From an uncultured Actinomycetes bacterium (GTDB taxonomy: Bacteria > Actinomycetota > Thermoleophilia > Gaiellales > JAICJC01), in NCBI GenBank assembly GCA_963757605.1, contig CAVWSF010000001.1:537531-601530 (forward strand): a stretch of DNA of 64,000 bases, written 5' to 3'. Shown here piece after piece: positions 21,132-41,386 of the stretch. A program made the translations under genes and the position numbers. The notes under the pieces were generated by a model that did not search any database, was not told the DNA's origin, and was given only the letters and a program-made list of their open reading frames with translations. Every line of letters begins with the position of its first letter. Within the stretch, counting starts at the first letter, position 1.

Positions 21132-21437
21132 CTACGCGAGGTCTGCGACGGTGCGGCCCGAGGCCGCGAGCGCGGCCACGAACCGGCGCATGCCCGGGTC
21201 GGCGGCACACGGCAGGAGCGCCACCTCGTAGCCGCCGTCGAGGAGGGCCATCACCTGGTCGACGATCGCGGCAACCAGCGGATGGGCGACGTCGGCGGGC
21301 AGGGTCGCCGGCGGCAGCGCGACGACGCCCCAGCCGCTGAGCGCGAGGTCGCTCAGGCGGTCGCGGGCGCCCTCCGGCGGGTTCACGACCACGTCGGGCA
21401 CCACGACGACCCGGCGCGAGCGCGCGTCACCCCGCAT
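21132..21437 (-). CDS. small acidic protein of unknown function, partner of the TudS-like gene (copy 1)
   Basis: ATG 21437 overlaps the upstream gene's end by 11 nt. Paralog of 32529-32870, sharing DAR..RV, (V/L)NP, WG...LP, PL(V/L) and GY blocks. Confidence 0.6.
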   Translation of the reverse strand: MRGDARSRRVVVVPDVVVNPPEGARDRLSDLALSGWGVVALPPATLPADVAHPLVAAIVDQVMALLDGGYEVALLPCAADPGMRRFVAALAASGRTVADLA

Positions 21438-21987
21438 CGCCGGCCCCCTCCCCGAACATCGCGTCGAGCTTCGCCAGCTCCTTCGCCTCGTCGTAGTCGA
21501 ACAGATCCTGGCCAATGCCGACCGCACGGACGTGCAGGATGACGCCGGAGAGCAGATCGAGCAGCGTCTCGGTGAAGAGGCCCGCCCCGAGCGTGACCGG
21601 GTAGTCCTCGTCGCGCGGCTTGTCGGGCCGCCCGCCCCACTCCGGGCTGGCCGCCGTCAGCTCGACTCCCATGCTCGGGCTGCCGTCGATCCCGATCACG
21701 ATCACCCGGGCGCCGGTCGCCAGGTCGGCCCGGATCTGGGCGGCGACCGGCTCGGCCAGGCGGCGGCAGTGGGCCCGGTAGACCGGCGTGTCGTACTGCT
21801 CGCGCACCGCCCAGAAGCGGCTCGTGCCGCCGAAGGCGAGCTCCGGGCACGGCATCTGCCGGATCGTGCAGTCGTGATCGCGAAGGAGCGCCAGGACCGG
21901 CGAGGAGACGCCCTGGCAGCGGGCGCCCTCGTCGACCTTGGCGTTCGCGTTCAGGAGGCAGTGGGCCAGGTAGCAGACCGTCTTCAT
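21427..21987 (-). CDS. divergent TudS/DUF523-like Cys-rich protein (copy 1)
   Basis: 186 aa. The ATG overlaps the upstream stop (ATGA). Blocks are AHCLLN, GARC, QMPCPELAF and GIDGSPSMGV, in the same order as the DUF523 CLLG / CPE / SPSCG motifs. Paralog of 31983-32528. Confidence 0.7.
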   Translation of the reverse strand: MKTVCYLAHCLLNANAKVDEGARCQGVSSPVLALLRDHDCTIRQMPCPELAFGGTSRFWAVREQYDTPVYRAHCRRLAEPVAAQIRADLATGARVIVIGIDGSPSMGVELTAASPEWGGRPDKPRDEDYPVTLGAGLFTETLLDLLSGVILHVRAVGIGQDLFDYDEAKELAKLDAMFGEGAGDAG

Positions 21988-23012
21988 GGCACCATCACGA
22001 TCTTGCCGACGTGGCGGCGCTCGTCCATGTAGGCGTGGGCGTCCGCGGCCGCCGACAGCGGGAACGTGCGGTCGACTGGGACGGCGATCCGGCCGTCGAG
22101 CGCCATCCGAAGCGCGGTGCGGATCTCGTCCGGGGTCGCCATCCGGAAGCCGAGGATGCGGTGGCCGCGCCGGAAGAGCTCGATGACGTCGAGCCGCACC
22201 ACCTCGCCGGCGTGCGCGCCGCAGGTGACGAGTCGGCCGTCCGGCGCCATCGCCGCCAGGTGCTCCCCGAACCGCGGGCCGCCGGTGGTGTCGACGACGA
22301 CGTCCACCCCGCGGCCCTCGGTGGCCTCCGACACGACCTCGGCGACCGACGTCTCGCGGTAGCAGAAGACGACATCGGCGCCCAGCGCCCGCACCGGCTC
22401 GACCTTCTCGGGCGCTCCCACCGACGCGATCACCCGGGCGCCCGCGATCCGGGCGGCCTGGACGGCGGCACTCGCGACGCCTCCCGAGGCGGAGGGCACG
22501 AGCACCGTCTCGCCGGCCCGGACGGCGGCGACGCTCACGATCATCGACCACGCCGTCGAGGCCACGCACTGGGCGGCCGCCGCGGGCACGAGCTCGTCCT
22601 CCCCACGCAGCGGGATCACGGCCCGGGCGGGCACGACCGCGAGCTCCGCGTAGCCGCCCCAGCGGTCGGTGCCGAACACCACGAAGCGCTCACACAGGTC
22701 CTGCCGCCAGCGCGCGCACGCCGGGCACGCGCCGCACGCGTACTGCTGGTAGGCGGTCACCGGGTCGCCAGGCGAGATCCCCTCGACCTCCACGCCGACC
22801 GCCGCGACCGTCCCGGCGAACTCGGCGCCGAGCACCCACGGGAGCGGGAACGGCCACCGCGACGTCCCGGCGCGGGAGTCGAGGTCGCTGTGGTTCAGGC
22901 CGCACGCGCGCACCTCGAGGATCACCTCGTCGGCGGCCGGCACGGGGTCGGCGAGCTCCTCCCAGCGCAACACCTCGGGCCCGCCGTACTCGCGAAACGC
23001 CGCCGCGTGCAC
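21984..23012 (-). CDS. zinc-type MDR alcohol dehydrogenase / oxidoreductase
   Basis: 342 aa. GroES-like N-terminus with a Cys cluster (CGACPAC) and a Rossmann segment VPSASGGVASAAVQ. Confidence 0.8.
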   Translation of the reverse strand: MHAAAFREYGGPEVLRWEELADPVPAADEVILEVRACGLNHSDLDSRAGTSRWPFPLPWVLGAEFAGTVAAVGVEVEGISPGDPVTAYQQYACGACPACARWRQDLCERFVVFGTDRWGGYAELAVVPARAVIPLRGEDELVPAAAAQCVASTAWSMIVSVAAVRAGETVLVPSASGGVASAAVQAARIAGARVIASVGAPEKVEPVRALGADVVFCYRETSVAEVVSEATEGRGVDVVVDTTGGPRFGEHLAAMAPDGRLVTCGAHAGEVVRLDVIELFRRGHRILGFRMATPDEIRTALRMALDGRIAVPVDRTFPLSAAADAHAYMDERRHVGKIVMVP

Positions 23013-23015
23013 CGA

Positions 23016-23750
23016 CTAGCCTCGATACCCCTGCATGCCCGAGTAGGCGATGGCCTCCGGCCACCCGTACGCCCCGGTCTTGCTCGTCCGAAGGCCGGAG
23101 CGCCACAGCCCGTAGGCGGTCATCGCGCCGAACGCGACGCCGTCGCAGACCGGCACGCCGACCTCGGCCGTGACCGCCCTCGCGACGTCCGCCATCCCTC
23201 CGCACGCCAGGACGAGCGCCTCGGCGCCGGCGCCGGAGACGACCCGGCGGCCGGCGGCGACGATCGCCGCCGTCGTGTCGGGGTTGTGGCTGCCCTGGTC
23301 GGCGACGGGGATGCCGAGCGGCTCGACGGCCACGCAACGGCTGCGCATGCCATGCCGGTCGAGGGCGTCCTCGATCTCGGGGACGCTGCGCGGAAGCGTC
23401 GTGACCACGGCGAACCGGCGGGCGATCGTGACCGCCGCCTGGAACGCGGCCTCGCCGATCCCCACCACGGGCGCCTCGGTCAGCTCGCGGGCCGCGCCGA
23501 CGCCTGGGTCGCCGAAGCACGCGATCAGATAGGCGTCGTGCGCCGGGAGCTCGCGCACGAGCTCGGCCACGGCGGCGGCCGCCACCACGGAGTCGGCCTC
23601 GCTCTCGATCGAGGTCGGCCCCCGCTCGGGCGACACGGCCGTCACCTCGCAGCCGTCCGGCAGCGTGTCGCGCACGACCGCGCCCATCGCCTCGGTGTGG
23701 CGGGCGTCGGTGTTGGGGTTCAAGAGGGCGAGCCGGAAGACGGCGCTCAC
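23016..23750 (-). CDS. Asp/Glu/hydantoin racemase family protein
   Basis: GTG 23750 overlaps the upstream stop (GTGA). Two Cys blocks, IACFGDPG and LACGGM, are typical of the family. Confidence 0.75.
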   Translation of the reverse strand: MSAVFRLALLNPNTDARHTEAMGAVVRDTLPDGCEVTAVSPERGPTSIESEADSVVAAAAVAELVRELPAHDAYLIACFGDPGVGAARELTEAPVVGIGEAAFQAAVTIARRFAVVTTLPRSVPEIEDALDRHGMRSRCVAVEPLGIPVADQGSHNPDTTAAIVAAGRRVVSGAGAEALVLACGGMADVARAVTAEVGVPVCDGVAFGAMTAYGLWRSGLRTSKTGAYGWPEAIAYSGMQGYRG

Positions 23751-25156
23751 TCCCCGCTCGCCGCCGGCTCGAGAGGCGCCGCCAGCGAGTGGTCGTCGTG
23801 GCAGGACAGGTACGCGCCCGACCCCGGCTCGGCCACGATCTCGCCGTCGGCGTAGACGGTCTCGCCGCGCACCAGCGTCCGCACGACCCGGGCCCGCACC
23901 CGCCGGCCGTCGAACGGTGACCACGGGTTCTTCGAGAACTGCTGGCTCTTCGCGTCGACCACCCACTCCGAGTCGAGGTCGTAGAGCACGACGTCGGCGT
24001 CGGCGCCCGGGAGGAGCGAGCCCTTGCGGGGGTAGAGACCGGCGATCCGGGCGGCGTTCGTCGCCGCGAAGCGCACGAACGCGTCGAGCGGCATGCCGCG
24101 CCGGTGGTAGGCCTCGTCGAGCACGAGCGGCACGGTCTCCTGGATCACCTGGCACCCGAGGAGGGCGTCGAAGATGTTGTCCCAGCCCGGCTCCTTCTCC
24201 TCCAGCGTGTAGGCCGAGTGGTCGGACACCAGGCAGTCGGCGGTGCCGTCGAGCACGGCGTCCCAGAGCCGCTCGACCAGCGCCCGCTCGCGCAGCGCCG
24301 GCGCGCACACCCCGTAGGGGCCGAGGCGCACGAGGTCGTCGAGGTCGAGCAGCAGGTGGTGCGGGCAGACCTCCATGGTCGCCGGCCGGCCCTCCGCCTT
24401 CTCGCGCCGGACGAGGTCGGCGCTCACGGGGCTCGAGACGTGCACGATCTGGATGCGGACACCCGCGTGGGCGGCGAGGAAGAGCGCCCGGTGGACGGCC
24501 TCCTCCTCGACGAACGCCGGCCGCGCCTCGTGGTGGGCGAGCGGGTCGCGGCGGCCGGTGGCGGCCATCCTGGCGAGCCCGTCCTGGAGCAGCGAGTCGT
24601 TCTCGGCGTGCACGAGCACGAGCCCGCCGAGCTCCTTCACCCGCCGCATCCCGTCCAGGAACTCCGCGTCGGTGACGTTGGGGTAAGACGGGTCGGAGAC
24701 CGGCATGAACGCCTTGAACCCCGGCGCCCCCTCCCCCCACTGCGCGGCGATCTCCGGGAGCGACGGCGCGGTGAGCGCGCCCCACAGGCCGAAGTCGACG
24801 ACCACCTTCCGGCGGGCCATCTCGCGCTTCTCGCGGTAGAGCTCGGCGGTCGTGACGGGCGGATAGGTGAGCGGGTGCTCCATCACCGTCGTGAAGCCGC
24901 CGGCGGCCGCCGACATCGTGCCGGTCATGAAGTCCTCGCGCTCGGTGTGGCCCGGGTCCTCGAAGTGGGCGTGCATGTCGATCGCGCCGGGCATCACCAC
25001 GAGCCCGGTCGCGTCGATCAGCTCGTCGGCGGCGCCGGCCCCGCCCGGATCGGCGATCGCGGCCACGCGCCCGCCCTCGATCGCGAGGTCGGCCCGAAAC
25101 ACCCCCGCCGCCGTCGCGAGCGTCCCGCCGGCGACGACCGTGCGCCGGCCGCTCAT
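23747..25156 (-). CDS. cyclic amidohydrolase (allantoinase / hydantoinase / dihydropyrimidinase family)
   Basis: 469 aa. HxH block (AIDMHAHF), carbamyl-Lys context (APGFKAFM), VHAEN and the Asp block VSDHSAY. Confidence 0.85.
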   Translation of the reverse strand: MSGRRTVVAGGTLATAAGVFRADLAIEGGRVAAIADPGGAGAADELIDATGLVVMPGAIDMHAHFEDPGHTEREDFMTGTMSAAAGGFTTVMEHPLTYPPVTTAELYREKREMARRKVVVDFGLWGALTAPSLPEIAAQWGEGAPGFKAFMPVSDPSYPNVTDAEFLDGMRRVKELGGLVLVHAENDSLLQDGLARMAATGRRDPLAHHEARPAFVEEEAVHRALFLAAHAGVRIQIVHVSSPVSADLVRREKAEGRPATMEVCPHHLLLDLDDLVRLGPYGVCAPALRERALVERLWDAVLDGTADCLVSDHSAYTLEEKEPGWDNIFDALLGCQVIQETVPLVLDEAYHRRGMPLDAFVRFAATNAARIAGLYPRKGSLLPGADADVVLYDLDSEWVVDAKSQQFSKNPWSPFDGRRVRARVVRTLVRGETVYADGEIVAEPGSGAYLSCHDDHSLAAPLEPAASGE

Positions 25157-25791
25157 CCGTCCTCCTCCGCGTGCATGCGCCGCAGCACCGGGCCGGGCAC
25201 GCCCAGCGTGCCCATGTGGTGCACGAGCCGGCCGCGGGCGTCCTCCCAGCGGTCGTCGAGCCACGCCCTGAGGCCCAGGCCGTCGATCAGGCGGGCGAGC
25301 ACGGACGCCTCGGCCGCCGCGTCGATGTTGGCGAGAAGGCCGGCCTCCCGCGCCCGCTCGAGCACGGCCCTGATCTCGCGCTCCCACATCGCGTCGGTCT
25401 CGACCAACTGCGCAGCGAAGGCCGGGTCGCGGCCCGCGTACGTCCACATCTCGCCCCAGAGCCGCCACTCCGCCCGCCGGCTGGGATCCGTCGGGAGCGC
25501 CAGGTGGACGATCGCGATCAGCTGCTCCTCCGGCCCTCCGGCCCGGGCAAGCCGGTGGTGGAGCTCGGCGAACCAGTCCTCGGACGCCGCCAGGAACGCC
25601 CCGACGATCACCGCCTGCTTGTCGGGGAAGTAGTGCGTGAGAACGCCGGTCGTGAAGCCGCCCTCGCGCGAGATGTCGCGCATGGTGGTCGTCTCGAGGC
25701 CGTTGCGGACGATGACGCGGCAGGCCGCCTCGCACACCTCCCGGCGGCGGCGCTCGGAGCGCTCGCTCGTGGACGGGTGCGACGCGCTCAC
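25153..25791 (-). CDS. TetR family transcriptional regulator
   Basis: N-terminal HTH TTMRDISREGGFTTGVLTHYF. Both gene ends overlap their neighbours by 4 nt. Confidence 0.85.
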   Translation of the reverse strand: MSASHPSTSERSERRRREVCEAACRVIVRNGLETTTMRDISREGGFTTGVLTHYFPDKQAVIVGAFLAASEDWFAELHHRLARAGGPEEQLIAIVHLALPTDPSRRAEWRLWGEMWTYAGRDPAFAAQLVETDAMWEREIRAVLERAREAGLLANIDAAAEASVLARLIDGLGLRAWLDDRWEDARGRLVHHMGTLGVPGPVLRRMHAEEDG

Positions 25792-27011
25792 AGGAGCGAC
25801 CTCAGGGTCCCGGTGAGGACCGCGATCGCGGCGGCGATATCGGCCTCGCTTGAGAGCTCGTCGGGGCGGTGGCTCACGCCCCCGTTCAGGCTGCGCACGA
25901 AGAGCATCCCGGCATCGACTCCGGCGGCGGCCAGGATCCCCGCGTCGTGGCCGGCGCCCGAGGCCATCTCGGCGACCGGCACGCCTGCGCTGCCCGCTGC
26001 CGACTGGACGGCGGCTCGGACGCGCGGCGAGAGCGACACCGGCTCCGAGCGCCAGGCGCGGACGGCGTCGACCCCGCACCGGTTCCGGGTGGCGACCTCG
26101 GCGGCGACGGCGGGCACGGCCGCGACCAGGAGGTCGAGCGCGGCCGCCGACGGGGCGCGCACGTCGACGGTCGCCCGCACGACGCCGGGGATCACGTTCG
26201 CGGCCGGCTGCGCGATCGCCACGTCGCCGATGGTGGCCACGGCGCCGGGCACCTCGAGCGCCCGCTCGCGCAGGCGCACCGCGAGGTCGGCGCAGGCGGC
26301 GAAGGCGTCGCTGCGGCCGGCCATCGGCACCGTGCCGGCGTGGCCGGACGCGCCCCGGAACGTCACGTTGAAGCCGGCCATCCCGGCGATCGCCGTGACG
26401 TCGGCGAGCGCGTAGCCGGCCGTGTCGAGCGCCGGCCCCTGCTCGATGTGCACCTCGACGTACGCCGCCGGCAACGTGACGTCGACCGGTGGGCCGGGCA
26501 GGCCGAGTGCGGCCAGCGCCTCCTCGATGGTGACCCCCGCGGCGTCGGCGCGGGCCAGCCCGACGGGCCCGACCTGGCCGGCGACGCTGCGGCTTCCGAA
26601 GCAGCCCTCCCCGAACCGCCAGCCCTCCTCGTCGCGGAAGACGACGACCGCGAGCGGCGCGCCGGGTGCGTCGTCTGCGACCGCCGCGACGGCCTCGATC
26701 GCGGCGACGACGCCGAGCGCGCCGTCGAAGCGGCCGCCCGACGGCACGGTGTCGACGTGCGAGCCCGACCAGACCACACCGGCGGCCGGAGCGCCGGACG
26801 GCCGCGCGTACAGATTCCCCGCCGAGTCGCGTGAGACCGCCATCCCGTCCTCCTCGCACCAGGCGGCGACGAGCGCGTGGGCCTCGTCCTCGAGGACGCT
26901 CAGCCCGGGCCTGGTGATCCCGCCGCTTTGGCCGTCGGAGCCCACACGGGCGAGGAGGTCGAGCCTTTCCATCGCCCTCTCAGCGCGCGGGATGCTGGTG
27001 ATCTGCTCCAT
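25788..27011 (-). CDS. M20 ureidohydrolase (N-carbamoyl-L-amino-acid hydrolase / allantoate amidohydrolase type)
   Basis: 407 aa with blocks SGSHVDTVPSGGRFDGALGV, EEGWRFG, GHAGT.PM and SGAGHDAG. Confidence 0.85.
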   Translation of the reverse strand: MEQITSIPRAERAMERLDLLARVGSDGQSGGITRPGLSVLEDEAHALVAAWCEEDGMAVSRDSAGNLYARPSGAPAAGVVWSGSHVDTVPSGGRFDGALGVVAAIEAVAAVADDAPGAPLAVVVFRDEEGWRFGEGCFGSRSVAGQVGPVGLARADAAGVTIEEALAALGLPGPPVDVTLPAAYVEVHIEQGPALDTAGYALADVTAIAGMAGFNVTFRGASGHAGTVPMAGRSDAFAACADLAVRLRERALEVPGAVATIGDVAIAQPAANVIPGVVRATVDVRAPSAAALDLLVAAVPAVAAEVATRNRCGVDAVRAWRSEPVSLSPRVRAAVQSAAGSAGVPVAEMASGAGHDAGILAAAGVDAGMLFVRSLNGGVSHRPDELSSEADIAAAIAVLTGTLRSLL

Positions 27012-27029
27012 GGGCCGGCGCGGTAGACT

Positions 27030-27056
27030 CGTCCATCATAATGGTTGTGATGGACG
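27030..27056. promoter_or_regulatory. candidate operator: perfect inverted repeat CGTCCATCA-N9-TGATGGACG
   Basis: 9-bp arms with an AT-rich spacer TAATGGTTG. It is centred in the 58-bp divergent gap between the M20 operon (which includes the TetR gene) and the SDR gene. Confidence 0.5.
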
Positions 27057-27069
27057 GGACGTAGCCGCC

Positions 27070-27852
27070 GTGGATCTCGGGCTCAAGGGATGCGTTGCGA
27101 TCGTCGGCGGGGCATCGTCCGGCATGGGCCGGGCCTGCGCCGTGGCGCTCGCACGGGAGGGCTGCAACGTCGCGGTCTTCGCCCGCCGGCGCGAGCTCCT
27201 CGACGAGGTGGTCGCCGAGATCGAGGCCCTCGGGAGCGGCGCGCAGGCGCTCGCGGTCGCCGGCGACTCGGCGCTTCCCGCCGACCTCGAGGCGCTGGTC
27301 GAGCGGACGCTCGAGCGCTTCGGCCGGCTCGACATCGTCGTCAACAACACCGGCGGCCCGCCCGCGGGGACGTTCGAGGACTTCGACGACGACGCCTGGC
27401 GTCGGGCCTGGGACCTGACGCTCATGTCGACGCTGCGCCTGACCCGGCTCGCCCTTCCGGAGCTCCGAAAGAGCGGCCGCGGCCGGGTCGTCAACATCAC
27501 CTCGTCGGCGGTGAAAGAGCCGAACGAGGGCCTCCTGCTCTCGAACACCTACCGGCCCGGCGTGATCGGCTGGGCCAAGACGCTGTCGCAGGACGAGGGC
27601 CCGCACGGCGTCACCGTGAACTCCATCGCTCCCGGCTTCATCGACACCGAGCGGATGAAGAACCTCTACGCCGGCGGCGCCGACCCCGAGGGCGACCGCA
27701 CCCGTGACGAGGCGCTGATCCCGGCCCGCCGGTTCGGCGACCCGGCCGAGATCGGCGACCTGTGCGCGTTTCTCTGCTCGACCAACGCCGCCTACCTGAA
27801 CGGCATCACCGTCCTCATGGACGGCGGCCTGGCGAAGGGGCTTCTGAGCTGA
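27070..27852 (+). CDS. SDR family oxidoreductase
   Basis: GTG 27070. Blocks VGGASSGMG, NNTGG and the Y...K context (SNTYRPGVIGWAKTL). Confidence 0.8.
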   Translation: MDLGLKGCVAIVGGASSGMGRACAVALAREGCNVAVFARRRELLDEVVAEIEALGSGAQALAVAGDSALPADLEALVERTLERFGRLDIVVNNTGGPPAGTFEDFDDDAWRRAWDLTLMSTLRLTRLALPELRKSGRGRVVNITSSAVKEPNEGLLLSNTYRPGVIGWAKTLSQDEGPHGVTVNSIAPGFIDTERMKNLYAGGADPEGDRTRDEALIPARRFGDPAEIGDLCAFLCSTNAAYLNGITVLMDGGLAKGLLS

Positions 27853-28632
27853 GCGGCCGGCTGGCCGGCAAGTCCGTCGTGGTCACGGGCGGCTCGTCGG
27901 GGCTCGGCCGGGCGATGTCGCTCGCGTTCGCGCGCGAAGGCGCCGACGTGGTGATCGGCGACGTGCGCGAGGATCCGCGCGAGGGCGGACGGCCGACGGT
28001 CGAGCTGATCGCCGAGGCGGGCGGGAGCGGCGTCTTCCTCGAAGCGGACGCGGGCCGCTGGGACGACATCGACCGGCTGGTGCGAACGGCGGTCGAGCGG
28101 CGCGGACGGCTCGACGTCGATGGTTCCGAACGCGATCGTGGCCGGGCCGCACTCCAGAGGGCTCCTCGACACGACCGAGGAGGACTGGGACGCGATGATG
28201 CACGTCGGCCTGCGCGGCGTCTTCCTCTGCTGCAAGCGCGCCGTCCAGCAGATGCTCGGCCAGGAGCCGGTCGCCGAGGCCCGCGGCCGGATCATCAACA
28301 TCTCCTCGCAGCACGGCATGATCGGCGCGCCCGGCCACGTGGCGTACTGCACGGCCAAAGGGGGAATCGTCAACCTGACCCGCCAGCTCGCGGTCGACTT
28401 CGGCCCGCAGGGCATCATCGTGAACGCCATCGCCCCCGGAAAGATCCTGACCCGGCCTGCCGACGAGCCCGACTCGCCGGAGGTGCTCGCCTACTCGCAT
28501 GCGCGCACGCCGTTCGCGCGGCTGGGCCGGCCCGCCGACGTGGCGGCCGCGGCCGTCTTCCTGGCCTCCGACGAGTGCACCTACGTGAGCGGTACGAACC
28601 TCATGGTGGACGGCGGCTGGATGGCCTACTGA
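27849..28632 (+). pseudogene. SDR family oxidoreductase, frameshift near 28117
   Basis: The N-terminal part (GKSVVVTGGSSGLGRAMSLAFAREGADVVIGD...GRLDV) is in one frame. The rest (MVPNAIVAG...SSQHGMIGAPGHVAYCTAKGG...LMVDGGWMAY) is in another. Paralog of the intact 31183-31953 gene. The start codon is unclear (CTG 27849 or GTG 27762). Confidence 0.7.
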
Positions 28633-29582
28633 TGCGAGCGGCCGTGATCCACGAGCTGGGCGCGACGCCGGTCGTGGAGGAGCACGACGAGCCGGCCCGC
28701 GGCGAGGGCCAGGCGCTGGTCGAGACCGGCGCCGCCGGCGTGAACCCGGTCGATCTCGCGATCGGCGCCGGGGTCTTCTACGGCGGCCATCCGCCGCTCC
28801 CGTTCGTCGCAGGCCGGGAGGGCGCCGGGCGGGTGGTCGAGGGCGAGGCGTTCGCGCCCGGGACGCTCGTGGCCACGCTCAAGACGGCCACCGGATCCAT
28901 GGCCGAGCGGTTCGTCGCCGACGAGGCGGAGCTGTGGGAGATCCCGGGCGAGGCGGACCCGGTCGTTGCGACCGCGCTCGGCATCGCCGGCCTGGCGGGC
29001 TGGCTGGCGGTCGAGGAGCGCGGGCGCATCCAGGAGGGCGACCGCGTGCTCGTGCTCGGAGCCACCGGGACGGTGGGGTCGGTCGCCGTGCAGGCGGCCC
29101 GGCTCCTGGGCGCGTCGCGCGTCGTGGCGGCCGGCCGCGATCCGGCGCGGCTCGAGCGGTCTTTGCGGTTGGGAGCCGACGAGACGGTTACACTCAGCGA
29201 GGGGGACGCCGCGGAGGCATTCCGGGCCGTGTTCCGAGACGGCGGCCCCGACCTCGTCATCGACCCGCTCTGGGGGCCGCCGGCGCTGGCGGCGATCGCG
29301 ATCGCGCCGATCGGGATGCGGTTCGTGAACCTCGGCCAGTCGGCGGGCGCGTCCGTGGAGCTGGCGTCGGCAGCCGTGCGGGGCCGCCTGCTCGAGATCA
29401 TCGGCCACACGGTCTTCGAAGCCCCCCACGCCGACCTGGCCCGCGGGCACCGCGCCATGCTCGGCCACGTCGCCGCCGGCGAGCTCGAGGTCGACGTCGA
29501 GACCTACCCGCTGGAGCGGGCGGCCGAGGCCTGGGACGCGCAGCGCGCGGGGCCCGCGCACAAGCTGGTCGTCACGGTGTAG
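28632..29582 (+). CDS. MDR quinone-oxidoreductase-like protein
   Basis: 316 aa. The ATG overlaps the upstream TGA by 1 nt. Rossmann segment VLGATGTVGSVAVQ. No zinc Cys cluster. Confidence 0.8.
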   Translation: MRAAVIHELGATPVVEEHDEPARGEGQALVETGAAGVNPVDLAIGAGVFYGGHPPLPFVAGREGAGRVVEGEAFAPGTLVATLKTATGSMAERFVADEAELWEIPGEADPVVATALGIAGLAGWLAVEERGRIQEGDRVLVLGATGTVGSVAVQAARLLGASRVVAAGRDPARLERSLRLGADETVTLSEGDAAEAFRAVFRDGGPDLVIDPLWGPPALAAIAIAPIGMRFVNLGQSAGASVELASAAVRGRLLEIIGHTVFEAPHADLARGHRAMLGHVAAGELEVDVETYPLERAAEAWDAQRAGPAHKLVVTV

Positions 29583-29614
29583 GCGGACTCCGGTTGTTCC
29601 TGTGTCGAGCAGGA

Positions 29615-30133
29615 GTGACCCGCCGGATCCTGAACTCATCGTGGGTGTCCTCCGCCGACAGCAACTCGTCAGACCAGGAGCACGAGTCCAGAGACGCCAA
29701 GGAAGACCGCCAGCTGATCGAGCTTCTGAACGAGCTTCGGGTCGCGCTTCCGGGGGTGCAGATGCTCTTCGGGTTCATGCTCGCGGTCCCCTTCACGCAA
29801 CGGTTCGGGTCGCTGAGCGACCGCCAGCGGTTGCTGTTCTACATCGCGTTTCTGGCCACGGCGAGCGCATCGATCTGCTTCATCACGCCCACGTCGTTTC
29901 ACCGCATCACCTGGCAGCGCGGCGTCAAGGGCCGGATGCTTCGGATCTCGAGCCGCCTCGCGATCGCGGGCACCGTCTTTCTCGGCGTCGCGATCGGCTG
30001 CGTCGTCGGCTTCCTGAGCAGCTACCTCTACAACTCGGTGCTCGCGTCGATCCTCACGGCCGTGGTGTTCACCATGATCGCCGTCCTGTGGTACACGATC
30101 CCGCTCGTCCTGCGCGAGCGCCGGCACGTGTAG
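29615..30133 (+). CDS. DUF6328-like membrane protein
   Basis: Blocks LIELLNELRVALPGVQMLFGFMLAVPF and HRITW with 3-4 TM helices. Start is GTG 29615 or GTG 29645. Confidence 0.6.
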   Translation: MTRRILNSSWVSSADSNSSDQEHESRDAKEDRQLIELLNELRVALPGVQMLFGFMLAVPFTQRFGSLSDRQRLLFYIAFLATASASICFITPTSFHRITWQRGVKGRMLRISSRLAIAGTVFLGVAIGCVVGFLSSYLYNSVLASILTAVVFTMIAVLWYTIPLVLRERRHV

Positions 30134-30148
30134 CCAAGGTCGAGCCAC

Positions 30149-31183
30149 CTACGGCGCGAGCAGCACGCGGCCGTAGTGCGCCCGCGTGGCCAGAAGCTCC
30201 TGCGCCCGCGCCGCCCCCTCGAGCGGCAGCACCGCCTCGATGGCCGGCGGGTCGACGAGGCCTTCGCCGAGCAGCCGGAAGACCTCCCACAGCTCCCGCC
30301 GCGACCCGTCGCTCGATCCGATGAGCGAGATCTGGCGGGCGAAGAGGTCGATCAGGTCGAGCTCGACGCGCGGGCCCGACGAGGCGCCGCAGAGGACGAT
30401 GCGGCCCGTGTTCGCAAGCGCGGCCAGCGCCTCCGGGACCGCGGCCGCGCCGACATGGTCGACGACCACATCGACGCCGCGGCCGCCGGTCAGCCGCCGC
30501 ACCTCCTGCCCCCACTCCGGCTGCGTGTAGTCGACCGCGTGCTCCGCGCCGGCGGCGAGCGCCCGCTCGCGCTTCTCGGCGCTCGACGCGGTGGCGAGGA
30601 CCCGCGCGCCGGCGAAGCGCGCCAGTGCGATCGCCGCGCCGCCCACGCCCGAGCCGGCCGCCGTCACCAGCACGGTCTCGCCCGCCCGGAGGCCGGCCCG
30701 CGCGAAGAGCATGTGGTAGGCCGTCAGGTAGACCGACCCCGCCGCGGCGGCCGTCTCGTACGACACGCCGTCGGGCAGCGCGAACAGGTTGCGGACCGGC
30801 GCGACAACGCGCTCGACGTACCCGCCGGGCCGGTTCACGCCCATGACCCCGTACTCGGCGCAGGCCGCCTCGTCGCCCTCCAGGCAGTAGGGACAGCGGC
30901 CGCACGAGAAGTCGTAGTGGACGTACACGCGGTCGCCGACCGCGACGGCTTCCACGCCCTCCCCCACCTCGACGACCTCGCCCGCCACGTCGTAGCCGGG
31001 CACGATCGGGAGGGTCGCGCCGTAGGCATGGCCGACGTCCTCGCGCACCCAGATGTCGAGCCGGTTCACGGCGACCGCCGCAACCCGGACGACCGCCTCG
31101 CCATGCCCCGGCGCCGGCTCCGGGAGCTCCTCGACGCGCAGCACCTCCGGCCCGCCGTGCTCGCGCATCACGATCGCGCGCAT
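30149..31183 (-). CDS. zinc-dependent MDR alcohol dehydrogenase
   Basis: 344 aa. Structural-zinc Cys cluster CGRCPYCLEGDEAAC and Rossmann segment VTAAGSGVGGAAI. Confidence 0.85.
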   Translation of the reverse strand: MRAIVMREHGGPEVLRVEELPEPAPGHGEAVVRVAAVAVNRLDIWVREDVGHAYGATLPIVPGYDVAGEVVEVGEGVEAVAVGDRVYVHYDFSCGRCPYCLEGDEAACAEYGVMGVNRPGGYVERVVAPVRNLFALPDGVSYETAAAAGSVYLTAYHMLFARAGLRAGETVLVTAAGSGVGGAAIALARFAGARVLATASSAEKRERALAAGAEHAVDYTQPEWGQEVRRLTGGRGVDVVVDHVGAAAVPEALAALANTGRIVLCGASSGPRVELDLIDLFARQISLIGSSDGSRRELWEVFRLLGEGLVDPPAIEAVLPLEGAARAQELLATRAHYGRVLLAP

Positions 31184-31953
31184 CAGTAGGCCATCCAGCC
31201 GCCATCGACCATCAGGTTGATGCCGCTCGTGTAGCTCGCCGGCCCCGCCAGGTACGAGACCGCGGAGGCCACGTCCTCCGGCCGGCCCAGGCGCGCGAAC
31301 GGCGTCCGCGAGCGCACGTACGCCAACCCCTCCTCGCTGGCGGAGAGGTCGCCCGCCGTGCCCGTCACGATCTTGCCGGGCGCGACCGCGTTGCACAGGA
31401 TCCCCTGCGGCCCGTAGTCGACCGCGATCTGGCGCGTCATCTGCACGAGCCCGCCCTTCCCCACGCTGTAGGCGAAGTGGCCCGGGCAGCCGACCATCCC
31501 GTGCTGGGACGTGATGTTCACGATCCGGCCGCGGACGTCGCCGTCGAGCGGCTGCTCGAGCATCCGCCGCACGGCCGCCCGGCAGAGCAGGTACGGCCCG
31601 CGCAGGTTGACGGCCATCATCGCGTCCCAGTCCTCCGGCTCCGTCTCGAGGAGCGGCTTCGAGTGCGCCCCTGCGAGGACCGCGTTGTTCACGACGACGT
31701 CGAGCGACCCGCACCGCTCCACCGCCGTCGCGACCAGGCGGTCGCAGTCCTCGGCCGACGACACGTCGGCGATCACGTGGACGGCGCTTCGGCCGGCCGC
31801 GCGGATCACGTCCTCGGTCGGCTCGCCGCCCGTGATCGGGTCGCGGCGGATGTCGCCCATCACCACGTCGAACCCGTCCTCGGCGAGCCGGATCGCCACG
31901 GCCCGGCCGATCCCCGACGCCGCCCCGGTCACGATCGCGCTGCGCTGACTCAT
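31183..31953 (-). CDS. SDR family oxidoreductase
   Basis: 256 aa with blocks TGAASGIGRA, NNAV and the YSVGKGG catalytic context. Ends GGWMAY with a TGATG junction to the MDR gene. Confidence 0.85.
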   Translation of the reverse strand: MSQRSAIVTGAASGIGRAVAIRLAEDGFDVVMGDIRRDPITGGEPTEDVIRAAGRSAVHVIADVSSAEDCDRLVATAVERCGSLDVVVNNAVLAGAHSKPLLETEPEDWDAMMAVNLRGPYLLCRAAVRRMLEQPLDGDVRGRIVNITSQHGMVGCPGHFAYSVGKGGLVQMTRQIAVDYGPQGILCNAVAPGKIVTGTAGDLSASEEGLAYVRSRTPFARLGRPEDVASAVSYLAGPASYTSGINLMVDGGWMAY

Positions 31954-31982
31954 GCCGATGCCACCTCCTGCATACTGACGCC

Positions 31983-32528
31983 ATGCCCGGCGTCGCGTTC
32001 GTCGCTCACTGCCTGCTGAACCAGAACTCGAAGACGCACGGCGGCGCGCGCTGCCCGGGCATCTACTCGCCGCTCGTGGAGGAGCTCCGCACCGCCGGCT
32101 GGCGGCTGGAGCAGATGCCGTGCCCGGAGCTGGCCTTCACCGGCCTTCACCGCTTCTGGGCGGTGAAGGAGCAGCTCGACACCGCGGCCTACCGCCGCCA
32201 CTGCCGCCGCATCGCCTCCGCGGTCGCCGCCGCGATCGAGGTGCACGTGCGCCGCGGCGACGACGTGATCCTCGTCGGCATCGAGGGCAGCCCTTCGATG
32301 GGCGTCCACATCACGAGCTCGGACCCCGACCGCGGTGGGCGGCCGGAGTGGCCGGACGGGTCGAGCGAGCTCTCGCCCGGAAGCGGCATCTTCATGGAGG
32401 AGATCGTCGCCGAGCTCACCGAGCGCGGCGTCGCCGCCCCGCGGGCGATGGGGATCTCCCACCAGCTCCCCGATCACGACCCGGACGCCGAGCGCGCCCG
32501 GCTCCGCGACCTGATGGGGACCGCCTAG
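31983..32528 (+). CDS. divergent TudS/DUF523-like Cys-rich protein (copy 2)
   Basis: 181 aa with blocks AHCLLNQN, GARC, QMPCPELAF, HCRR and GIEGSPSMGV. Paralog of 21427-21987. Confidence 0.75.
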   Translation: MPGVAFVAHCLLNQNSKTHGGARCPGIYSPLVEELRTAGWRLEQMPCPELAFTGLHRFWAVKEQLDTAAYRRHCRRIASAVAAAIEVHVRRGDDVILVGIEGSPSMGVHITSSDPDRGGRPEWPDGSSELSPGSGIFMEEIVAELTERGVAAPRAMGISHQLPDHDPDAERARLRDLMGTA

Positions 32529-32870
32529 GTGGACACCGACGCCCGCTGCTTCCGCGTCGCGCTCGTCGCCGGCGAGCTCCTGAACCCCGTCGCCGGGGAG
32601 CTCGACGCGCTCTCGGTGCTCGAGCAGGAGGAGTGGGGCGCGATCCAGCTCCCCGCGGCCGACTACCCGGACGAGGTGGCCGGGCCGCTCCTGGAGCAGG
32701 TCGCCGAGCAGGCCGAGGAGTTCGTGCGGAACGGCTACACGCTCACGGTGATCCGCGGCCGGGCAGGCCTCGACGAGGCGCTCGCACGGGTCGGCGTCGC
32801 CGCACCGCCCGCGTGTGCTCCCGAGACGGCCGACGAGCTGCGGGCGTTCCTGGCGGAGGCCTGCAGGTGA
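32529..32870 (+). CDS. small acidic protein of unknown function, partner of the TudS-like gene (copy 2)
   Basis: The GTG start directly abuts the upstream TAG. 113 aa. Paralog of 21132-21437. Confidence 0.6.
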   Translation: MDTDARCFRVALVAGELLNPVAGELDALSVLEQEEWGAIQLPAADYPDEVAGPLLEQVAEQAEEFVRNGYTLTVIRGRAGLDEALARVGVAAPPACAPETADELRAFLAEACR

Positions 32871-32874: not shown

Positions 32875-33621
32875 GTGACGGCGCGCGCGCTGGTGACAGG
32901 CGCGGCGTCGGGGATCGGCCGGTCGACCGCCGTCCTGCTCGCCGAGCGCGGAGCCGCCGTCGCGTGCCTCGACGTGAACGCGGCCGGGCTGGACGAGACC
33001 GCAGCGGCGATCGGCGAGCACGCCGTTCCCATCCCGTGTGATGTGACCGACCTCGCCGCGGTCGAGGCCGCGGTGTCGCAGGCGGCCGCCGAACTGGGCG
33101 GCCTGGACGCGGTCGCCAACGTCGCCGGCGTCGGCGACTTCACCGGCGACGTCGCCGAGATCGCACCCGAGGAGTGGGCGCGCGTCCTGGCGATCAACCT
33201 GAACGGGCCGTTCCACGTCTCCCGCGCGGCGATCCCGCACCTGCGCGCGGCCGGCGGCGGGGCGATCGTGAACGTCAGCTCGCAGTTCGGGCTGGTCGGG
33301 TGCCTGGCGAGCCCGGCGTACTGCGCCTCGAAGGCGGGACTCATCGGCCTCACCCGGGCGATGGCGATCGACCACACGTCGGAGGGCATCCGCGTGAACT
33401 GCGTCTGCCCCGGCCCGGTCGACACGCCGATGCTGGCCTGGACCGACGCGACCCCCGAGCTCACGGCGCGCGAACGCGGGCGGACGCAGGGCCGCAACCT
33501 GAGCGGCCGCTCCGGCCGGCCCGCGGAGATCGCCGCCACCATCGCCTTCCTGCTCTCGGACGACGTCGGCTTCATGTCGGGCAGCATCGTCGCCGTCGAC
33601 GGCGCCTGGACGGCGGGGTAG
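32875..33621 (+). CDS. SDR family oxidoreductase
   Basis: GTG 32875 follows AGGTGAGGA. Blocks TGAASGIGR, and the YCASKAG catalytic context. Confidence 0.85.
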   Translation: MTARALVTGAASGIGRSTAVLLAERGAAVACLDVNAAGLDETAAAIGEHAVPIPCDVTDLAAVEAAVSQAAAELGGLDAVANVAGVGDFTGDVAEIAPEEWARVLAINLNGPFHVSRAAIPHLRAAGGGAIVNVSSQFGLVGCLASPAYCASKAGLIGLTRAMAIDHTSEGIRVNCVCPGPVDTPMLAWTDATPELTARERGRTQGRNLSGRSGRPAEIAATIAFLLSDDVGFMSGSIVAVDGAWTAG

Positions 33622-33628: not shown

Positions 33629-34978
33629 TCACGCGGGCTGGAGCACGCGGCCGACGGGCAGGTACTCGCCGCGGTGCTCCTCGCCGACGAAGCGGCCGTC
33701 GGCGACCACGTGCTCGCCGCGGGCCAGGACGTCGCGCACCCGGCCGGGCACCTCGATGCCCTCGTACGGCGTCCAGTCCAGGCCGTCGTTGATCGCCTCG
33801 AGCGTGAGCCTGACCGGCGCGGCGGGGTCCCAGACGACGACGTCGGCATCGCTCCCCGGGGCCAGCACCCCTTTCCGCGGATAGAGCCCGAAGATGCGCG
33901 CCGGCTGCGTGCACGCCGCGTCGACCAGCCGCTCGACCGCGAGCGGATCGCCGCCTCCGAGCGCGAACCCGAGCGGGAGACGAGCGCCGATGCCGGGCAG
34001 GCCGGTCGGGATCTTCGTGAAGTCGCCCTGCACCGGCACCTTGTCGCGGTCGAGCCGCAGGTGGCAGTGGTCGGAGGCATAGGTCGTGACGTCGCCCGAT
34101 CGCAGGCCGTCCAGGAGCGCGGCCCGGTCGGCGGCCTCGCGCAGCGGCGGCGTCATCACGTAGCGCAGGGCGTCGGGCCCCTCGTGATCGGAGCGCTCGA
34201 AGAGCAGGTGGTGCGGGCACACCTCGGCATGGACGGTCTGGCCGCGGCGGCGGGCGGCGCGGATCTCGTCGAGCGGCGCGCGGCCGGTGACGTGGACGAC
34301 GTAGGGCGTCGCTCCCGCGAGGCCGGCGAGCACCAGGAACCGGTGGACGCACTCCGCCTCGAGCTCGATCGGCCGGCTGGCGGGGAGCGAGTCGAGGCCG
34401 AGCTCGCCGGCCTCGACCCGCTGTCGGGTGAGGAGGTCGACGGCGCGGCCGTTCTCGCAGTGGGCGAGCACGACAACGCCGAGGTCGGCCGCCTCCTGCA
34501 TCACGGCCAGGGCGACGTCGTCGTCGGCCATGATCCCGAGCTCGACGTAGGCCAGCCACAGCTTGACGCTCCCCACCCCGAGCGCCGCGGTCTCGGCGAG
34601 GTCGCCGCGCCGATAGGCCGCCGGCTCCCAGATCACCGCGTGGAAGGCGAGGTCGATGTGCGACTCGGGCACCTCGTCGGCCAGCGTCCGCCGGGCCGCC
34701 TCGGCCGGCCGCTCGCCGGGCAGCGCGTCGACGAAGGCGAGGGCGGAGGTGGTGCCGCCGCAGAGCGCAGAGCGCGAGTCGTCGCCGAGGCCGCCGAACG
34801 GGTGCGTGTGGACGTCGATCGCGCCCGGCAGGACGAGGCAGCCGCTCGCGTCGACGACCTCGGCGCCGGAGCGGTCGACCGCCCCGATCTCGACGACCCG
34901 GCCGCCGTCCACCAGCACGTCGGCCGGCACCGACCCGTCCGGCCCGACGACCGTGCCGCCGGCGATCACCGTCGCCAC
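33629..34978 (-). CDS. D-hydantoinase / dihydropyrimidinase family amidohydrolase
   Basis: 449 aa. HxH block (AIDVHTHP), Lys context (VGSVKLWLAY), LAHCENG and the Asp block ASDHCH. The GTG overlaps the upstream TAG by 1 nt. Confidence 0.85.
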   Translation of the reverse strand: MATVIAGGTVVGPDGSVPADVLVDGGRVVEIGAVDRSGAEVVDASGCLVLPGAIDVHTHPFGGLGDDSRSALCGGTTSALAFVDALPGERPAEAARRTLADEVPESHIDLAFHAVIWEPAAYRRGDLAETAALGVGSVKLWLAYVELGIMADDDVALAVMQEAADLGVVVLAHCENGRAVDLLTRQRVEAGELGLDSLPASRPIELEAECVHRFLVLAGLAGATPYVVHVTGRAPLDEIRAARRRGQTVHAEVCPHHLLFERSDHEGPDALRYVMTPPLREAADRAALLDGLRSGDVTTYASDHCHLRLDRDKVPVQGDFTKIPTGLPGIGARLPLGFALGGGDPLAVERLVDAACTQPARIFGLYPRKGVLAPGSDADVVVWDPAAPVRLTLEAINDGLDWTPYEGIEVPGRVRDVLARGEHVVADGRFVGEEHRGEYLPVGRVLQPA

Positions 34979-38633: not shown

Positions 38634-38643
38634 CGAGCCCGTC

Positions 38644-40272: not shown

Positions 40273-40484
40273 CGTCTCCTCCAGATCGGGGCTCCAGGCG
40301 GGTCGCAGCGCTCACTCTCGCATACGCGGACGACGAGGTGAAGTGGCGCAGGCGACACATGGTCGCGCGCTCGAATGGCCGTCTCTGCGACGCGAATTGG
40401 CTACAGATGCGGGAGTGCCGCTCGGCCAAGGGGGCGGTATGCTATCAGACCAATCTGACGCCGACAGAGAAGGGACAGGTCACC

Positions 40485-41354: not shown

Positions 41355-41357
41355 AGC

Positions 41358-41385: not shown

Positions 41386-41386
41386 C

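Follow-up and report, generated by a model that had tools for sequence, protein, structure and literature searches.

The 64,000-nucleotide window analysed here, from an uncultured Actinomycetes bacterium, carries two copies of a gene pair that, judged by gene order and junctions, is a translationally coupled two-gene module. The larger product is, by sequence and structural model, a member of the TudS superfamily, and the smaller belongs to no described family. Our best guess, still tentative, is that the two form a heteromeric TudS-superfamily desulfidase for a cyclic thio-ureide or thio-heterocycle.

Two paralogous gene pairs

All four open reading frames named in a preliminary description of this DNA are present. 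Large1 (21427..21987, minus strand, 186 aa) is paired with small1 (21132..21437, minus strand, 101 aa), and large2 (31983..32528, plus strand, 181 aa) with small2 (32529..32870, plus strand, 113 aa, pI 4.1). Their GC3 of 0.88-0.95 is typical for real genes in a window of ~73% GC. The proposed paralogy held for both partners: the large proteins share 47% identity over 180 aa (E=1e-56), with 61 of the first 110 residues identical, and the small proteins 36% over 75 aa (E=1e-14). Small1 additionally scored 87.8 bits against the small-family HMM. Every motif previously listed was recovered from the large proteins (AHCLLN, GARC, QMPCPELAF, RFWAV.EQ.DT..YR.HCRR, and GI(D/E)GSPSMGV) and the small ones (DAR..RV, (V/L)NP, WG...LP, PL(V/L), and GY). 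The small proteins had been called acidic, and the median pI of 77 family members was 4.36.

Gene order, large then small, is identical in both copies. The junctions were read directly and agree with the earlier account: small1 begins inside large1, with an 11-nt overlap (ATGCGGGGTGA), while the GTG start of small2 abuts the TAG stop of large2.

Conservation of the pair

Synteny was surveyed at the top 80 species-representative genome loci, drawn from Actinomycetota, Chloroflexota, and Dormibacterota. The small gene lay directly 3' of the large gene in 79 of these 80 species-level loci, with a stop-to-start gap of <=0 nt in 61 of 73 called pairs. Homologues of the large protein (47-49% identical) were also found on four Neorhizobium replicons, and on the one replicon examined the next gene is a small-family member (hhalign probability 94.6%, E=7e-8). 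A natural fusion, P0276, has the order small-linker-large and was assembled on three contigs, forming one sequence cluster only. Neither the top 80 genome loci nor the plasmid set yielded a homologue outside soil-type Actinomycetota, Chloroflexota, Dormibacterota, and rhizobia.

The suggestion that the pair is a conserved functional unit is thus strongly supported by synteny, by translational-coupling positions, by one natural fusion, and by occurrence in four phyla. As the genes are kept together across these four bacterial phyla, they probably encode a two-subunit enzyme, and probably one so far unstudied.

The large protein

NF045597 (CD3072 family, equivalog) was the only NCBIfam match for the large proteins, at 107.2 bits for large1 (E=1e-31; 5.8e-31 in our feature list) and 115.5 bits for large2 (E=1e-33), both under the curated cutoff of 130 bits. 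Neither protein matched Pfam DUF523 (PF04463), or any other Pfam-A family, at E<=1. Precomputed matches to PF27735 (2-thiour_desulf_put) were present on 117 of the 120 homologues listed, which are 72-97% identical to large2; one carrier is 97% identical, and the fusion P0276 has a weak precomputed match. Judged through these homologues, the window proteins very likely belong to PF27735.

The TudS three-dimensional fold was found in an AF2 model of large2 (mean pLDDT 81, with low-confidence loops). Its best four PDB matches in Foldseek were the TudS structures 6ZW9, 6Z96, 6Z93, and 6Z92 (probability 1.0, E=2e-4 to 8e-4, TM 0.43-0.51, 24-25% identity). The relation to TudS and the CD3072 name given in the preliminary description were therefore upheld, with limits. 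The NF045597 match and the top TudS structures support them, whereas the score below cutoff, the lack of a DUF523 match, and a missing canonical third cysteine ligand do not.

TudS is an iron-sulfur enzyme that strips sulfur from thiouracil, and the canonical cluster-ligating cysteines of TudS_A are Cys10, Cys43, and Cys104. The corresponding cysteines in the TudS domain of RudS_vir are Cys12/44/110 (PMC11417400), and the catalytic residues of TudS are Glu45, Ser101, and Ser103 (PMC10611767). Alignment to the RudS_vir domain brought C10, C47-P-E49, S103-P-S105, and G133/G135 of the large protein into correspondence, with C10 and C47 matching TudS Cys1 and Cys2. Over 160 distinct family sequences, C10, C47, and C74 were invariant save for one alignment gap at C10, E49 and S103 occurred in all 160, and position 105 was Ser in 154 and Thr in 6. 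C24 was mostly conserved, and large1 retains C10 and C24 together with the CPE, HC, and SPSM motifs.

The third cysteine position (106) held Met in 151 sequences, Leu in 8, Arg in 1, and Cys in none of the 160; both window proteins have Met106. Cys74, at the start of a long helix, is a likely replacement for the lost ligand. Because the canonical cysteine is absent, cluster binding and TudS-type chemistry are not to be assumed. The conserved residues H9 and H73 flank C10 and C74, an arrangement which would also fit a mononuclear metal site. The family further contains an invariant insertion of ~25 residues (RFWAVxEQxDT..YR.HC), with invariant polar residues R57, W59, Q64, T67, R71, and H73, and a C-terminal extension relative to TudS.

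The small protein

The small proteins gave no Pfam match at E<=1, DUF1722 included, and not one of 372 small2 homologues carries a Pfam domain. At 50% identity the family comprises 161 representative clusters. The AF2 model of small2 (pLDDT 90.7) shows a generic alpha/beta fold of four parallel beta strands alternating with helices, and it had no significant PDB match. That the partner lacks a described family, as first supposed, agrees with its lack of Pfam, NCBIfam, and PDB matches. Family members are ~110 residues long, acidic, and without a conserved Cys or His.

The small and large families align collinearly in hhalign (E=0.04-0.05, probability about 1%), a score that 11 of 200 column-shuffled and 27 of 200 block-shuffled alignments also reached. 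The two models share the order of their secondary-structure elements, and in MAFFT the small proteins align to the large domain. When the small model was run through Foldseek, TudS did not appear among the top 50 matches.

Genomic context

Pair 1 forms the last two of seven minus-strand genes, an operon in which stops and starts overlap. It opens with an M20 hydantoinase/carbamoylase-family amidase (25788..27011; TIGR01879, 309.6 bits, above the 204 cutoff) and a TetR-family regulator (25153..25791; TetR_N, TetR_C_6). These are followed by a cyclic amidohydrolase of allantoinase/hydantoinase type (23747..25156; TIGR03178, allantoinase AllB, 368.3 bits, above the 357.85 cutoff) and an Asp/Glu/hydantoin racemase family protein (23016..23750; PF01177, 170 bits). 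Directly 5' of large1 is an MDR zinc-type dehydrogenase (21984..23012; ADH_N, ADH_zinc_N; PIG3-type quinone oxidoreductase family below cutoff).

Pair 2 is flanked on one side by a divergent SDR dehydrogenase (31183..31953, minus strand; adh_short), separated from large2 by a 29-bp gap, with an MDR dehydrogenase 3' of it (30149..31183, minus strand). On the other side, 4 nt past small2, lies a second SDR dehydrogenase (32875..33621, plus strand). A dihydropyrimidinase/hydantoinase-like amidohydrolase (33629..34978, minus strand; TIGR02033, 339 bits, below the 393 cutoff) is the last gene of a convergent transporter operon; pair 2 and its amidohydrolase occupy separate transcription units. The transporter is a Dpp/Opp-type ABC importer consisting of a fused ATPase, two permeases, and a family-5 solute-binding protein (34978..40176, minus strand). 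Beyond it are an SMP-30/gluconolactonase/LRE-like beta-propeller protein (40338..41354, plus strand; PF08450) and a PuuE-type allantoinase-like protein of polysaccharide-deacetylase fold (43739..44656, minus strand; TIGR03212, 272.6 bits, below cutoff). The MDR/SDR/amidohydrolase setting described earlier was thus recovered, except that the SDR nearest to pair 1 is 5 kb off, at 27070, and divergent from the operon start. No gene specific to thio compounds (a known ergothioneine-pathway enzyme, for example) was identified in the window.

Of 50 informative loci, 29 had a ring-opening cyclic amidohydrolase within 10 kb of the pair and 21 had none, and a Dpp-type ABC importer likewise recurred near the pair in 29. 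Some pairs sit behind a sulfatase or among unrelated genes. The earlier idea that the pair was recruited twice into N-heterocycle catabolism therefore finds only partial support.

The most widely conserved neighbor was the divergent SDR: 45 of 80 loci had a homologue of >=50% identity, which in 31 lay directly beside the pair in divergent orientation. An SMP-30/lactonase-like protein occurred near the pair in 35 of 80; outside the lineage of the window its gene directly follows the pair, and copies 64-92% identical adjoin the pair in Streptosporangiaceae, Acidimicrobiia, and Chloroflexi loci. PuuE-type homologues (cluster c9) were found upstream in many loci, and outside the lineage of the window they are adjacent to the pair and divergent. 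A secreted sulfatase on the same strand preceded the large gene by 22-31 nt in 6 loci (one overlaps the large start), and 10 loci had a sulfatase within 10.5 kb. The Neorhizobium pair is adjoined by a pyrimidine-type nucleoside hydrolase, an SsuA-like ABC transporter, and an NtaA/DmoA monooxygenase. Overall, the gene upstream of the pair was on the opposite strand in 52 of 68 cases.

Proposed function and alternatives

According to the desulfidase model, the large and small proteins would form a heteromer whose large subunit holds a [4Fe-4S] cluster in which one iron is open. The large protein retains the catalytic Glu, the two Ser, and two of three cluster cysteines of TudS, and Cys74 would be the replacement ligand. 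The small subunit may be a non-catalytic partner which stabilises or completes the substrate pocket. The likeliest chemistry would be TudS-like, a non-redox exchange of thiocarbonyl sulfur for oxygen with release of sulfide, the substrate being a cyclic thio-ureide of the thiouracil or thiohydantoin kind. Within the window, the oxo product could then be opened by the adjacent allantoinase/dihydropyrimidinase-type amidohydrolases and the M20 carbamoylase. Hints to the substrate come from these genes and the PuuE-type gene nearby, from the nucleoside hydrolase, SsuA-like, and NtaA/DmoA neighbors in Neorhizobium, and from the sulfatase 5' of the pair in some loci. Counting against a desulfidase are the family scores (no DUF523 match, NF045597 below cutoff), the missing third cysteine, the 21 of 50 loci devoid of an amidohydrolase, the separate transcription of pair 2 and its amidohydrolase, and the lack of a thio-specific gene in the window. 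The restriction of the fusion to a single sequence cluster counts against a heteromer. Moreover, TudS works as a monomer (PMC10611767), so a partner is not mechanistically required.

A possible but unlikely alternative is a non-sulfur metalloenzyme, namely a Lewis-acid Fe-S or mononuclear-metal hydro-lyase, hydrolase, or isomerase. It would act on an oxygenated ureide, lactam, or lactone intermediate in a pathway served by the SDR, SMP-30-like, PuuE-like, and amidohydrolase proteins and the Dpp-type importer. The best-conserved neighbors in distant lineages (SDR, SMP-30/lactonase-like, and Dpp-type importer) include none that is sulfur-specific, the third TudS cysteine is lost, and the invariant polar insertion reshapes the pocket. 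Other three-Cys [4Fe-4S] enzymes are dehydratases. However, the family conserves the Glu and the two Ser of the desulfidase mechanism (S105 is Thr in only 6 of 160), and the sulfatase and SsuA/NtaA-like contexts point to sulfur metabolism. In other lineages the SDR and lactonase-like genes are mostly on the opposite strand, so they may not be co-transcribed with the pair.

It is improbable that the large protein plays an ordinary TudS role, recycling 2-/4-thiouracil or 4-thio-UMP from RNA turnover, with incidental catabolic neighbors and a small protein that acts as stabiliser or cluster-handling helper. In favor of this role, the only relative to have been characterised is TudS, which also heads the structural matches, the pair is usually its own bicistronic unit behind an opposite-strand gene, and a pyrimidine nucleoside hydrolase adjoins it in Neorhizobium. 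Yet one genome holds two diverged copies in different catabolic clusters, the first inside a seven-gene operon, and the invariant insertion and changed ligand set suggest a different pocket. The limited distribution of homologues is also unlike that of a housekeeping salvage enzyme.

More doubtful is a specific version of the desulfidase model, a heterodimeric Fe-S enzyme in which the small protein is an ancient cysteine-less paralogue completing a pseudo-symmetric dimer. Its ligands would be C10, C47, and C74, with or without C24, and its substrates thio-hydantoins or thio-imidazolones such as 2-thiohydantoin-5-propionate, which is made during ergothioneine breakdown. Finally, although high-GC genomes yield many spurious long ORFs, the notion that the small ORFs are spurious or their similarity a high-GC by-product is refuted by a GC3 of 0.95 in the correct frame, the 372 homologues, the 161 representative clusters, the position kept at 79 of 80 loci, the confidently modeled fold, and the in-frame fusion to a large domain in P0276.

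Significance and comparison with known systems

TudS and RudS are the model for an iron-sulfur cluster as sulfide acceptor in non-redox desulfuration. To our knowledge, characterisation of TudS-type enzymes has been limited to single-chain TudS and the RudS fusion. The module represents a superfamily branch in which the canonical third ligand was lost, another invariant cysteine and a pocket insertion were gained, and the enzyme is encoded with a partner that merits a family definition of its own. If it is a heteromeric thio-heterocycle desulfidase, this chemistry would reach beyond nucleobases, and in soil bacteria that are abundant and mostly uncultured it would be tied to the pathways for hydantoins, pyrimidines, and sulfur scavenging. 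If the pseudo-symmetric heterodimer acts on thio-hydantoins, it would give soil Actinomycetota and relatives a so far unrecognised way of turning natural thiones into amino acids and sulfide. Neorhizobium galegae, which has the module and is culturable and genetically tractable, offers a practical test system.

The hydantoinase/allantoinase, hydantoin racemase, and N-carbamoyl-amino-acid amidohydrolase of hydantoin, allantoin, and dihydropyrimidine utilisation clusters all occur in the operon of pair 1, plus a TetR regulator, although many genomes have the pair without such genes. We are not aware of a TudS-like pair in any described cluster of this type.

The CD3072 family (NF045597), which probably also lies within PF27735, has the motifs AHCxLNQN and QxPCPE in common with the window large proteins, as well as a Cys at the C74-equivalent position. 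Identity is only 27-28%, however, and CD3072 proteins keep the canonical SPSC/SPNC cysteine that the window proteins lack. The CD3072 name also fails on the partner gene: true CD3072 genes (PGAP-named; Enterococcus, Cetobacterium) adjoin a CD3073 ECF-transporter S component, whereas the window large genes adjoin the small gene and MDR/SDR genes. In Enterococcus raffinosus, CD3072/CD3073 is next to selenium-metabolism genes.

TudS itself (thiouracil/4-thio-UMP desulfidase, DUF523, PF04463; 6Z92/6Z96) has the fold in common with the large protein, with C10, C47/E49, S103/S105, and the Gly-x-Gly loop at the same positions. The large protein differs by its Met, Leu, or Arg (Ser in Neorhizobium) in place of the third cluster cysteine, and by the gain of H73-C74, C24, the insertion, and the C-terminal extension. 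TudS is a stand-alone monomer, in contrast to the large protein and its co-encoded partner. RudS, a TudS-DUF1722 fusion and tRNA 4-thiouridine desulfidase, is a precedent for a TudS catalytic module with a C-terminal accessory module that determines which substrate is used. The small protein differs from the DUF1722 of RudS, given its lack of a Pfam match and its predicted parallel-strand alpha/beta fold, and it is made as a polypeptide of its own, apart from one fusion in which the order is reversed. The order of catalytic part followed by accessory part is nevertheless common to RudS and the pair.

Two paralogous gene pairs in the window

All four open reading frames, large1 (21427-21987, minus strand) with small1 (21132-21437, minus) and large2 (31983-32528, plus) with small2 (32529-32870, plus), gave clean translations and the GC3 signature typical of real genes. 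The window has a GC content of ~73%, and its nearest genomes are Gaiellales (Thermoleophilia) metagenome-assembled genomes at no more than 93% amino-acid identity. The preliminary description had called the pairs paralogous, and alignment bore this out: large1 and large2 share 47% identity over 180 residues (E=1e-56), with 61 of the first 110 residues identical, and small1 and small2 share 36% over 75 residues (E=1e-14). The junctions it gave, an 11-nt overlap in pair 1 and TAG-GTG in pair 2, were likewise read in the sequence, and profile matches of the neighboring genes agreed with its account of both neighborhoods.

Pair 1 forms the last two genes of a seven-gene minus-strand operon in which junctions overlap or abut. 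The order is M20 hydantoinase/carbamoylase-family amidase, TetR regulator, amidohydrolase, Asp/Glu/hydantoin racemase, MDR dehydrogenase, large1, and small1, and the amidohydrolase scored above the AllB allantoinase cutoff. Upstream of pair 2 lies a divergent SDR at 29 bp, with an MDR behind it. Downstream, an SDR follows at 4 nt, and then a convergent dihydropyrimidinase-like amidohydrolase, the closing gene of a Dpp-type ABC importer operon.

The 29-bp spacer (31954-31982) separates the divergent start codons of the upstream SDR (31953, minus) and large2 (31983, plus). Two promoters with leaders would hardly fit within it, which suggests leaderless transcripts. Scans for a riboswitch, consensus promoter or terminator found none. 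A further SDR gene at 27860-28632 (+) is apparently frameshifted, with its N-terminal Rossmann part (GKSVVVTGGSSGLGRA...) in one frame to ~28115 and the remainder, from 28120, in the next frame; it is either a pseudogene or the result of a sequencing error.

The large protein and its predicted cluster ligands

Profile searches with large1 and large2 yielded part of what the preliminary description had anticipated. The Pfam-A copy searched gave no match, and NF045597 was the sole NCBIfam family to match, at 107 and 115 bits, under its curated cutoff of 130. The name given in that description, "CD3072 family TudS-related putative desulfidase", is indeed that of NF045597. Homologues sharing 72-97% identity with large2 carry a newer Pfam model, PF27735 ("2-thiour_desulf_put"). 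With this model and the sister NCBIfam model, the large family already has catalogue entries. PDB sequence searches with single proteins and profiles returned spurious de novo design matches only. The AlphaFold2 model of large2 (mean pLDDT 81, pTM 0.82) has low-confidence loops at residues 15-27 and 111-130, and its best four PDB matches were TudS crystal structures (probability 1.0, 24-25% identity). Membership of the large protein in the TudS superfamily is very likely. Most large-family proteins among the matches listed (homologues P0001-P0120) carry the JGI label "predicted secreted protein", probably because the hydrophobic N-terminal strand (VAFVAHCLLN) was mistaken for a signal peptide.

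Residues were assigned by alignment to RudS_vir of phage 1H12, a bona fide TudS domain with cluster cysteines Cys12, Cys44, and Cys110 (PMC11417400). C10 fell on Cys1, C47-P48-E49 on Cys2-Pro-Glu, S103-P104-S105 on the catalytic Ser-Pro-Ser, and Met106 on Cys3. As the TudS catalytic triad (PMC10611767) is kept while the Cys3 position is changed, the large protein appears to be a TudS-superfamily member with an altered cluster-ligand set.

Among 160 distinct sequences of the family, position 106 was Met in 151, Leu in 8, Arg in 1, and Cys in none, while C10, C47, and C74 were invariant, save one alignment gap at C10, and C24 was kept in 148. TudS lacks an insertion that is almost invariant here (R57, F58, W59, Q64, T67, R71, H73, and C74). 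The model places Cys74 at the N-terminal end of a long helix (68-90). In such folds this end of the helix is expected to point toward the C-terminal edge of the sheet, the position of C10 and C47, and we therefore infer that Cys74 replaces the lost third cluster ligand. Cys74, with its invariance, and the added insertion in the pocket are new observations on the large family.

The small protein

Single and profile searches with small1 and small2 found no match in Pfam, NCBIfam or PDB sequences, which fits the earlier statement that the partner was not known to have been described. None of 372 homologue clusters at 90% identity carried a Pfam domain. Searched by profile, 1.84 billion representative proteins yielded only 161 relatives, almost all of them stand-alone and 90-130 residues long. 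The family is acidic (median pI 4.36). Its invariant residues (D4, R6, D26, W36, G37, L41, P42, P47, V50, L54, G69, Y70, P98, and F107) include no Cys or His, so that no cofactor site is evident. AlphaFold2 predicted a small alpha/beta protein (pLDDT 90.7, pTM 0.83), whose Foldseek matches were all generic: flavodoxin-like, CheY-like, and arginase-like (best E=0.014).

By-eye alignment and the behavior of MAFFT, which puts the small proteins on the large domain, raised the idea of a degenerate origin, in which the small protein would be a paralogue of the large one that has no cysteines. Secondary-structure elements follow the same order in both models. Comparison of the two families by hhalign gave E=0.04-0.05, a score reached by 11 of 200 column shuffles and 27 of 200 block shuffles, and Foldseek gave no link to TudS. 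As the idea found no statistical support, it is retained solely as a reading of low probability.

The two genes as a conserved unit

One genome per GTDB species was scanned, and the top 80 loci with a large gene were compared. These spanned Gaiellales and other Thermoleophilia, Solirubrobacterales, Acidimicrobiia, Streptosporangiaceae, Nocardiopsis, Chloroflexi, and Dormibacterota. In 79 of the 80, the gene directly 3' of the large one and in the same orientation belonged to the small family. The exception, a Dormibacterota metagenome-assembled genome (locus L050, 10001-10540), has no small gene after the large gene or anywhere within 10 kb; an opposite-strand MDR gene begins 34 nt past its large gene. 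For pairs called by the gene finder, the distance from large stop to small start was 0 nt or less in 61 of 73 and 1-2 nt in 4 more. Eight related Gaiellales loci hold a second copy of the pair 1 type, in most cases within the operon that surrounds it in the window, and two more hold a partial match.

The pair extends to Alphaproteobacteria, where a large homologue (47-49% identity) occurs on four Neorhizobium replicons. On the one replicon checked, a gene matching the small profile follows with a 4-nt overlap (hhalign probability 94.6%, E=7e-8). Annotation of Neorhizobium galegae VafX2 (pNgVX; locus L085, 7980-8554) splits the large gene into two overlapping hypothetical proteins, suggestive of a frameshift; in sister strains the gene is one unbroken tblastn match. 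We also found a natural fusion, P0276 (375 aa), consisting of a small domain, a linker, and a large domain and assembled on three contigs. A search for recurrent fusions left it as the sole genuine one, and as a query it retrieved only itself. P0262 and P0267 appear to be chimeras created by a frameshift or by assembly, and the genes neighboring P0276 were uninformative.

The preliminary description had proposed a conserved functional unit. The near-constant succession of the two genes, their tight spacing, and the fusion support this well, and conservation of the module is nearly certain. That the two proteins form a heteromer is a somewhat favored reading.

Genomic context

Context was counted in 50 loci with at least 4 kb on each side of the pair, taking neighbors within about 10 kb. 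A close homologue of the divergent SDR occurred in 30 of 50, a Dpp-type ABC importer in 29, and an SMP-30/lactonase-like protein in 25. The recruitment into N-heterocycle catabolism proposed earlier found partial support: 29 of 50 have a DHOase-superfamily or PuuE-type cyclic amidohydrolase nearby and 21 have none. The hydantoin/pyrimidine/ureide theme is real, though not universal, and the context of the pair is conserved only in part. In 52 of 68 cases the gene upstream of the pair runs in the opposite direction, so the pair is usually its own bicistronic unit.

Within the window, the SMP-30-like gene (40338-41354) has counterparts directly 3' of the pair in Streptosporangiaceae, Acidimicrobiia, and Chloroflexi, and the PuuE-like gene (43739-44656) is elsewhere often divergent from and adjoining the pair. 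Both belong to a catabolic island (40338-45716) reaching well past the pairs, with SMP-30/lactonase-like, Gfo/Idh/MocA oxidoreductase, MDR, PuuE-like allantoinase, and OsmC-like genes, together with a probable glyoxalase and a probable GST read from sequence. Homologues of several island genes directly adjoin the large-small pair in other phyla.

Sulfur scavenging appears to be a second theme, arising independently. In six loci a secreted sulfatase gene lies on the same strand 22-31 nt upstream of the large gene, and one overlaps the large-gene start; a sulfatase lies within 10.5 kb of the pair in 10 loci, in one clade of uncultured Actinomycetes. The arrangement looks like a sulfatase-large-small operon in that clade. 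The upstream sulfatases of L026, L028, L030, L032, L039, and L042 (about 8500-10000) bear an N-terminal signal-like segment. The Neorhizobium pair neighbors a pyrimidine-type nucleoside hydrolase, an SsuA-like ABC transporter, and an NtaA/DmoA-family monooxygenase.

Proposed function and rival readings

A heteromeric TudS-type enzyme is the best-supported reading of the pair. The large subunit would hold a [4Fe-4S] cluster on three cysteines (C10, C47, and C74) with an open iron, alongside which the conserved Glu49, Ser103, and Ser105 would act. The substrate would be a cyclic ureide resembling thiouracil, thiohydantoin or thio-dihydropyrimidine, whose thiocarbonyl would become a carbonyl with release of sulfide. 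The small subunit would shape or stabilize the pocket, and large loops 15-27 and 111-130 may become ordered on binding of the cluster or partner. A desulfidase acting on a thio-heterocycle is a tentative assignment. The module is directly testable in Neorhizobium galegae.

In one rival reading, the pair is a non-sulfur Lewis-acid or mononuclear-metal enzyme of a pathway with SDR, lactonase, and amidohydrolase steps; the kept TudS triad and the sulfatase-linked loci sit with desulfidation. Ordinary salvage of thiouracil or thio-UMP is a second rival. It would make the neighboring genes incidental.

A link to ergothioneine is weak. Only L041 (10901-12394, minus) and L037 (1630-2943, minus), loci from Chloroflexia and Dormibacterota genomes, have a HAL/PAL-family lyase gene downstream of the pair. 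These lyases lack the Ala-Ser-Gly MIO motif and have Cys-Ala-Gly in its place, so they probably form no MIO; they did not match ergothionase models. Homologues of ornithine cyclodeaminase, sarcosine-oxidase-type, homocysteine methyltransferase, and formaldehyde-activating enzymes lie nearby, and these loci could be a betaine pathway (trimethylammonia-lyase type). The gut thiourocanate desulfhydrase described in the literature is homologous to xanthine oxidase, and hence unrelated to the pair.

Comparison with TudS, RudS, and CD3072

In the searchable literature we found only TudS and RudS characterized, and found no description of the two-gene form. The pair was also compared with PGAP-annotated CD3072 proteins of Enterococcus raffinosus and Cetobacterium somerae. 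On the plasmids of both species (L086, NZ_CP081847.1, 1-7021, and L087, respectively) the CD3072 gene always adjoins CD3073. In E. raffinosus it stands directly 3' of selD-yedF-selB-selA, a context which may reflect the salvage of a compound bearing a seleno or thio modification.

CD3072 keeps the canonical SPSC/SPNC cysteine, unlike the large proteins of the window, and its partner is the ECF-transporter S component CD3073 rather than a small acidic protein. This contrast indicates that one branch of the superfamily combines the small partner with loss of Cys106. An obligate partner belonging to no family, together with the correlated loss of the canonical cysteine, is new, as is the clear boundary that now separates the pair from the ECF-linked CD3072 family.
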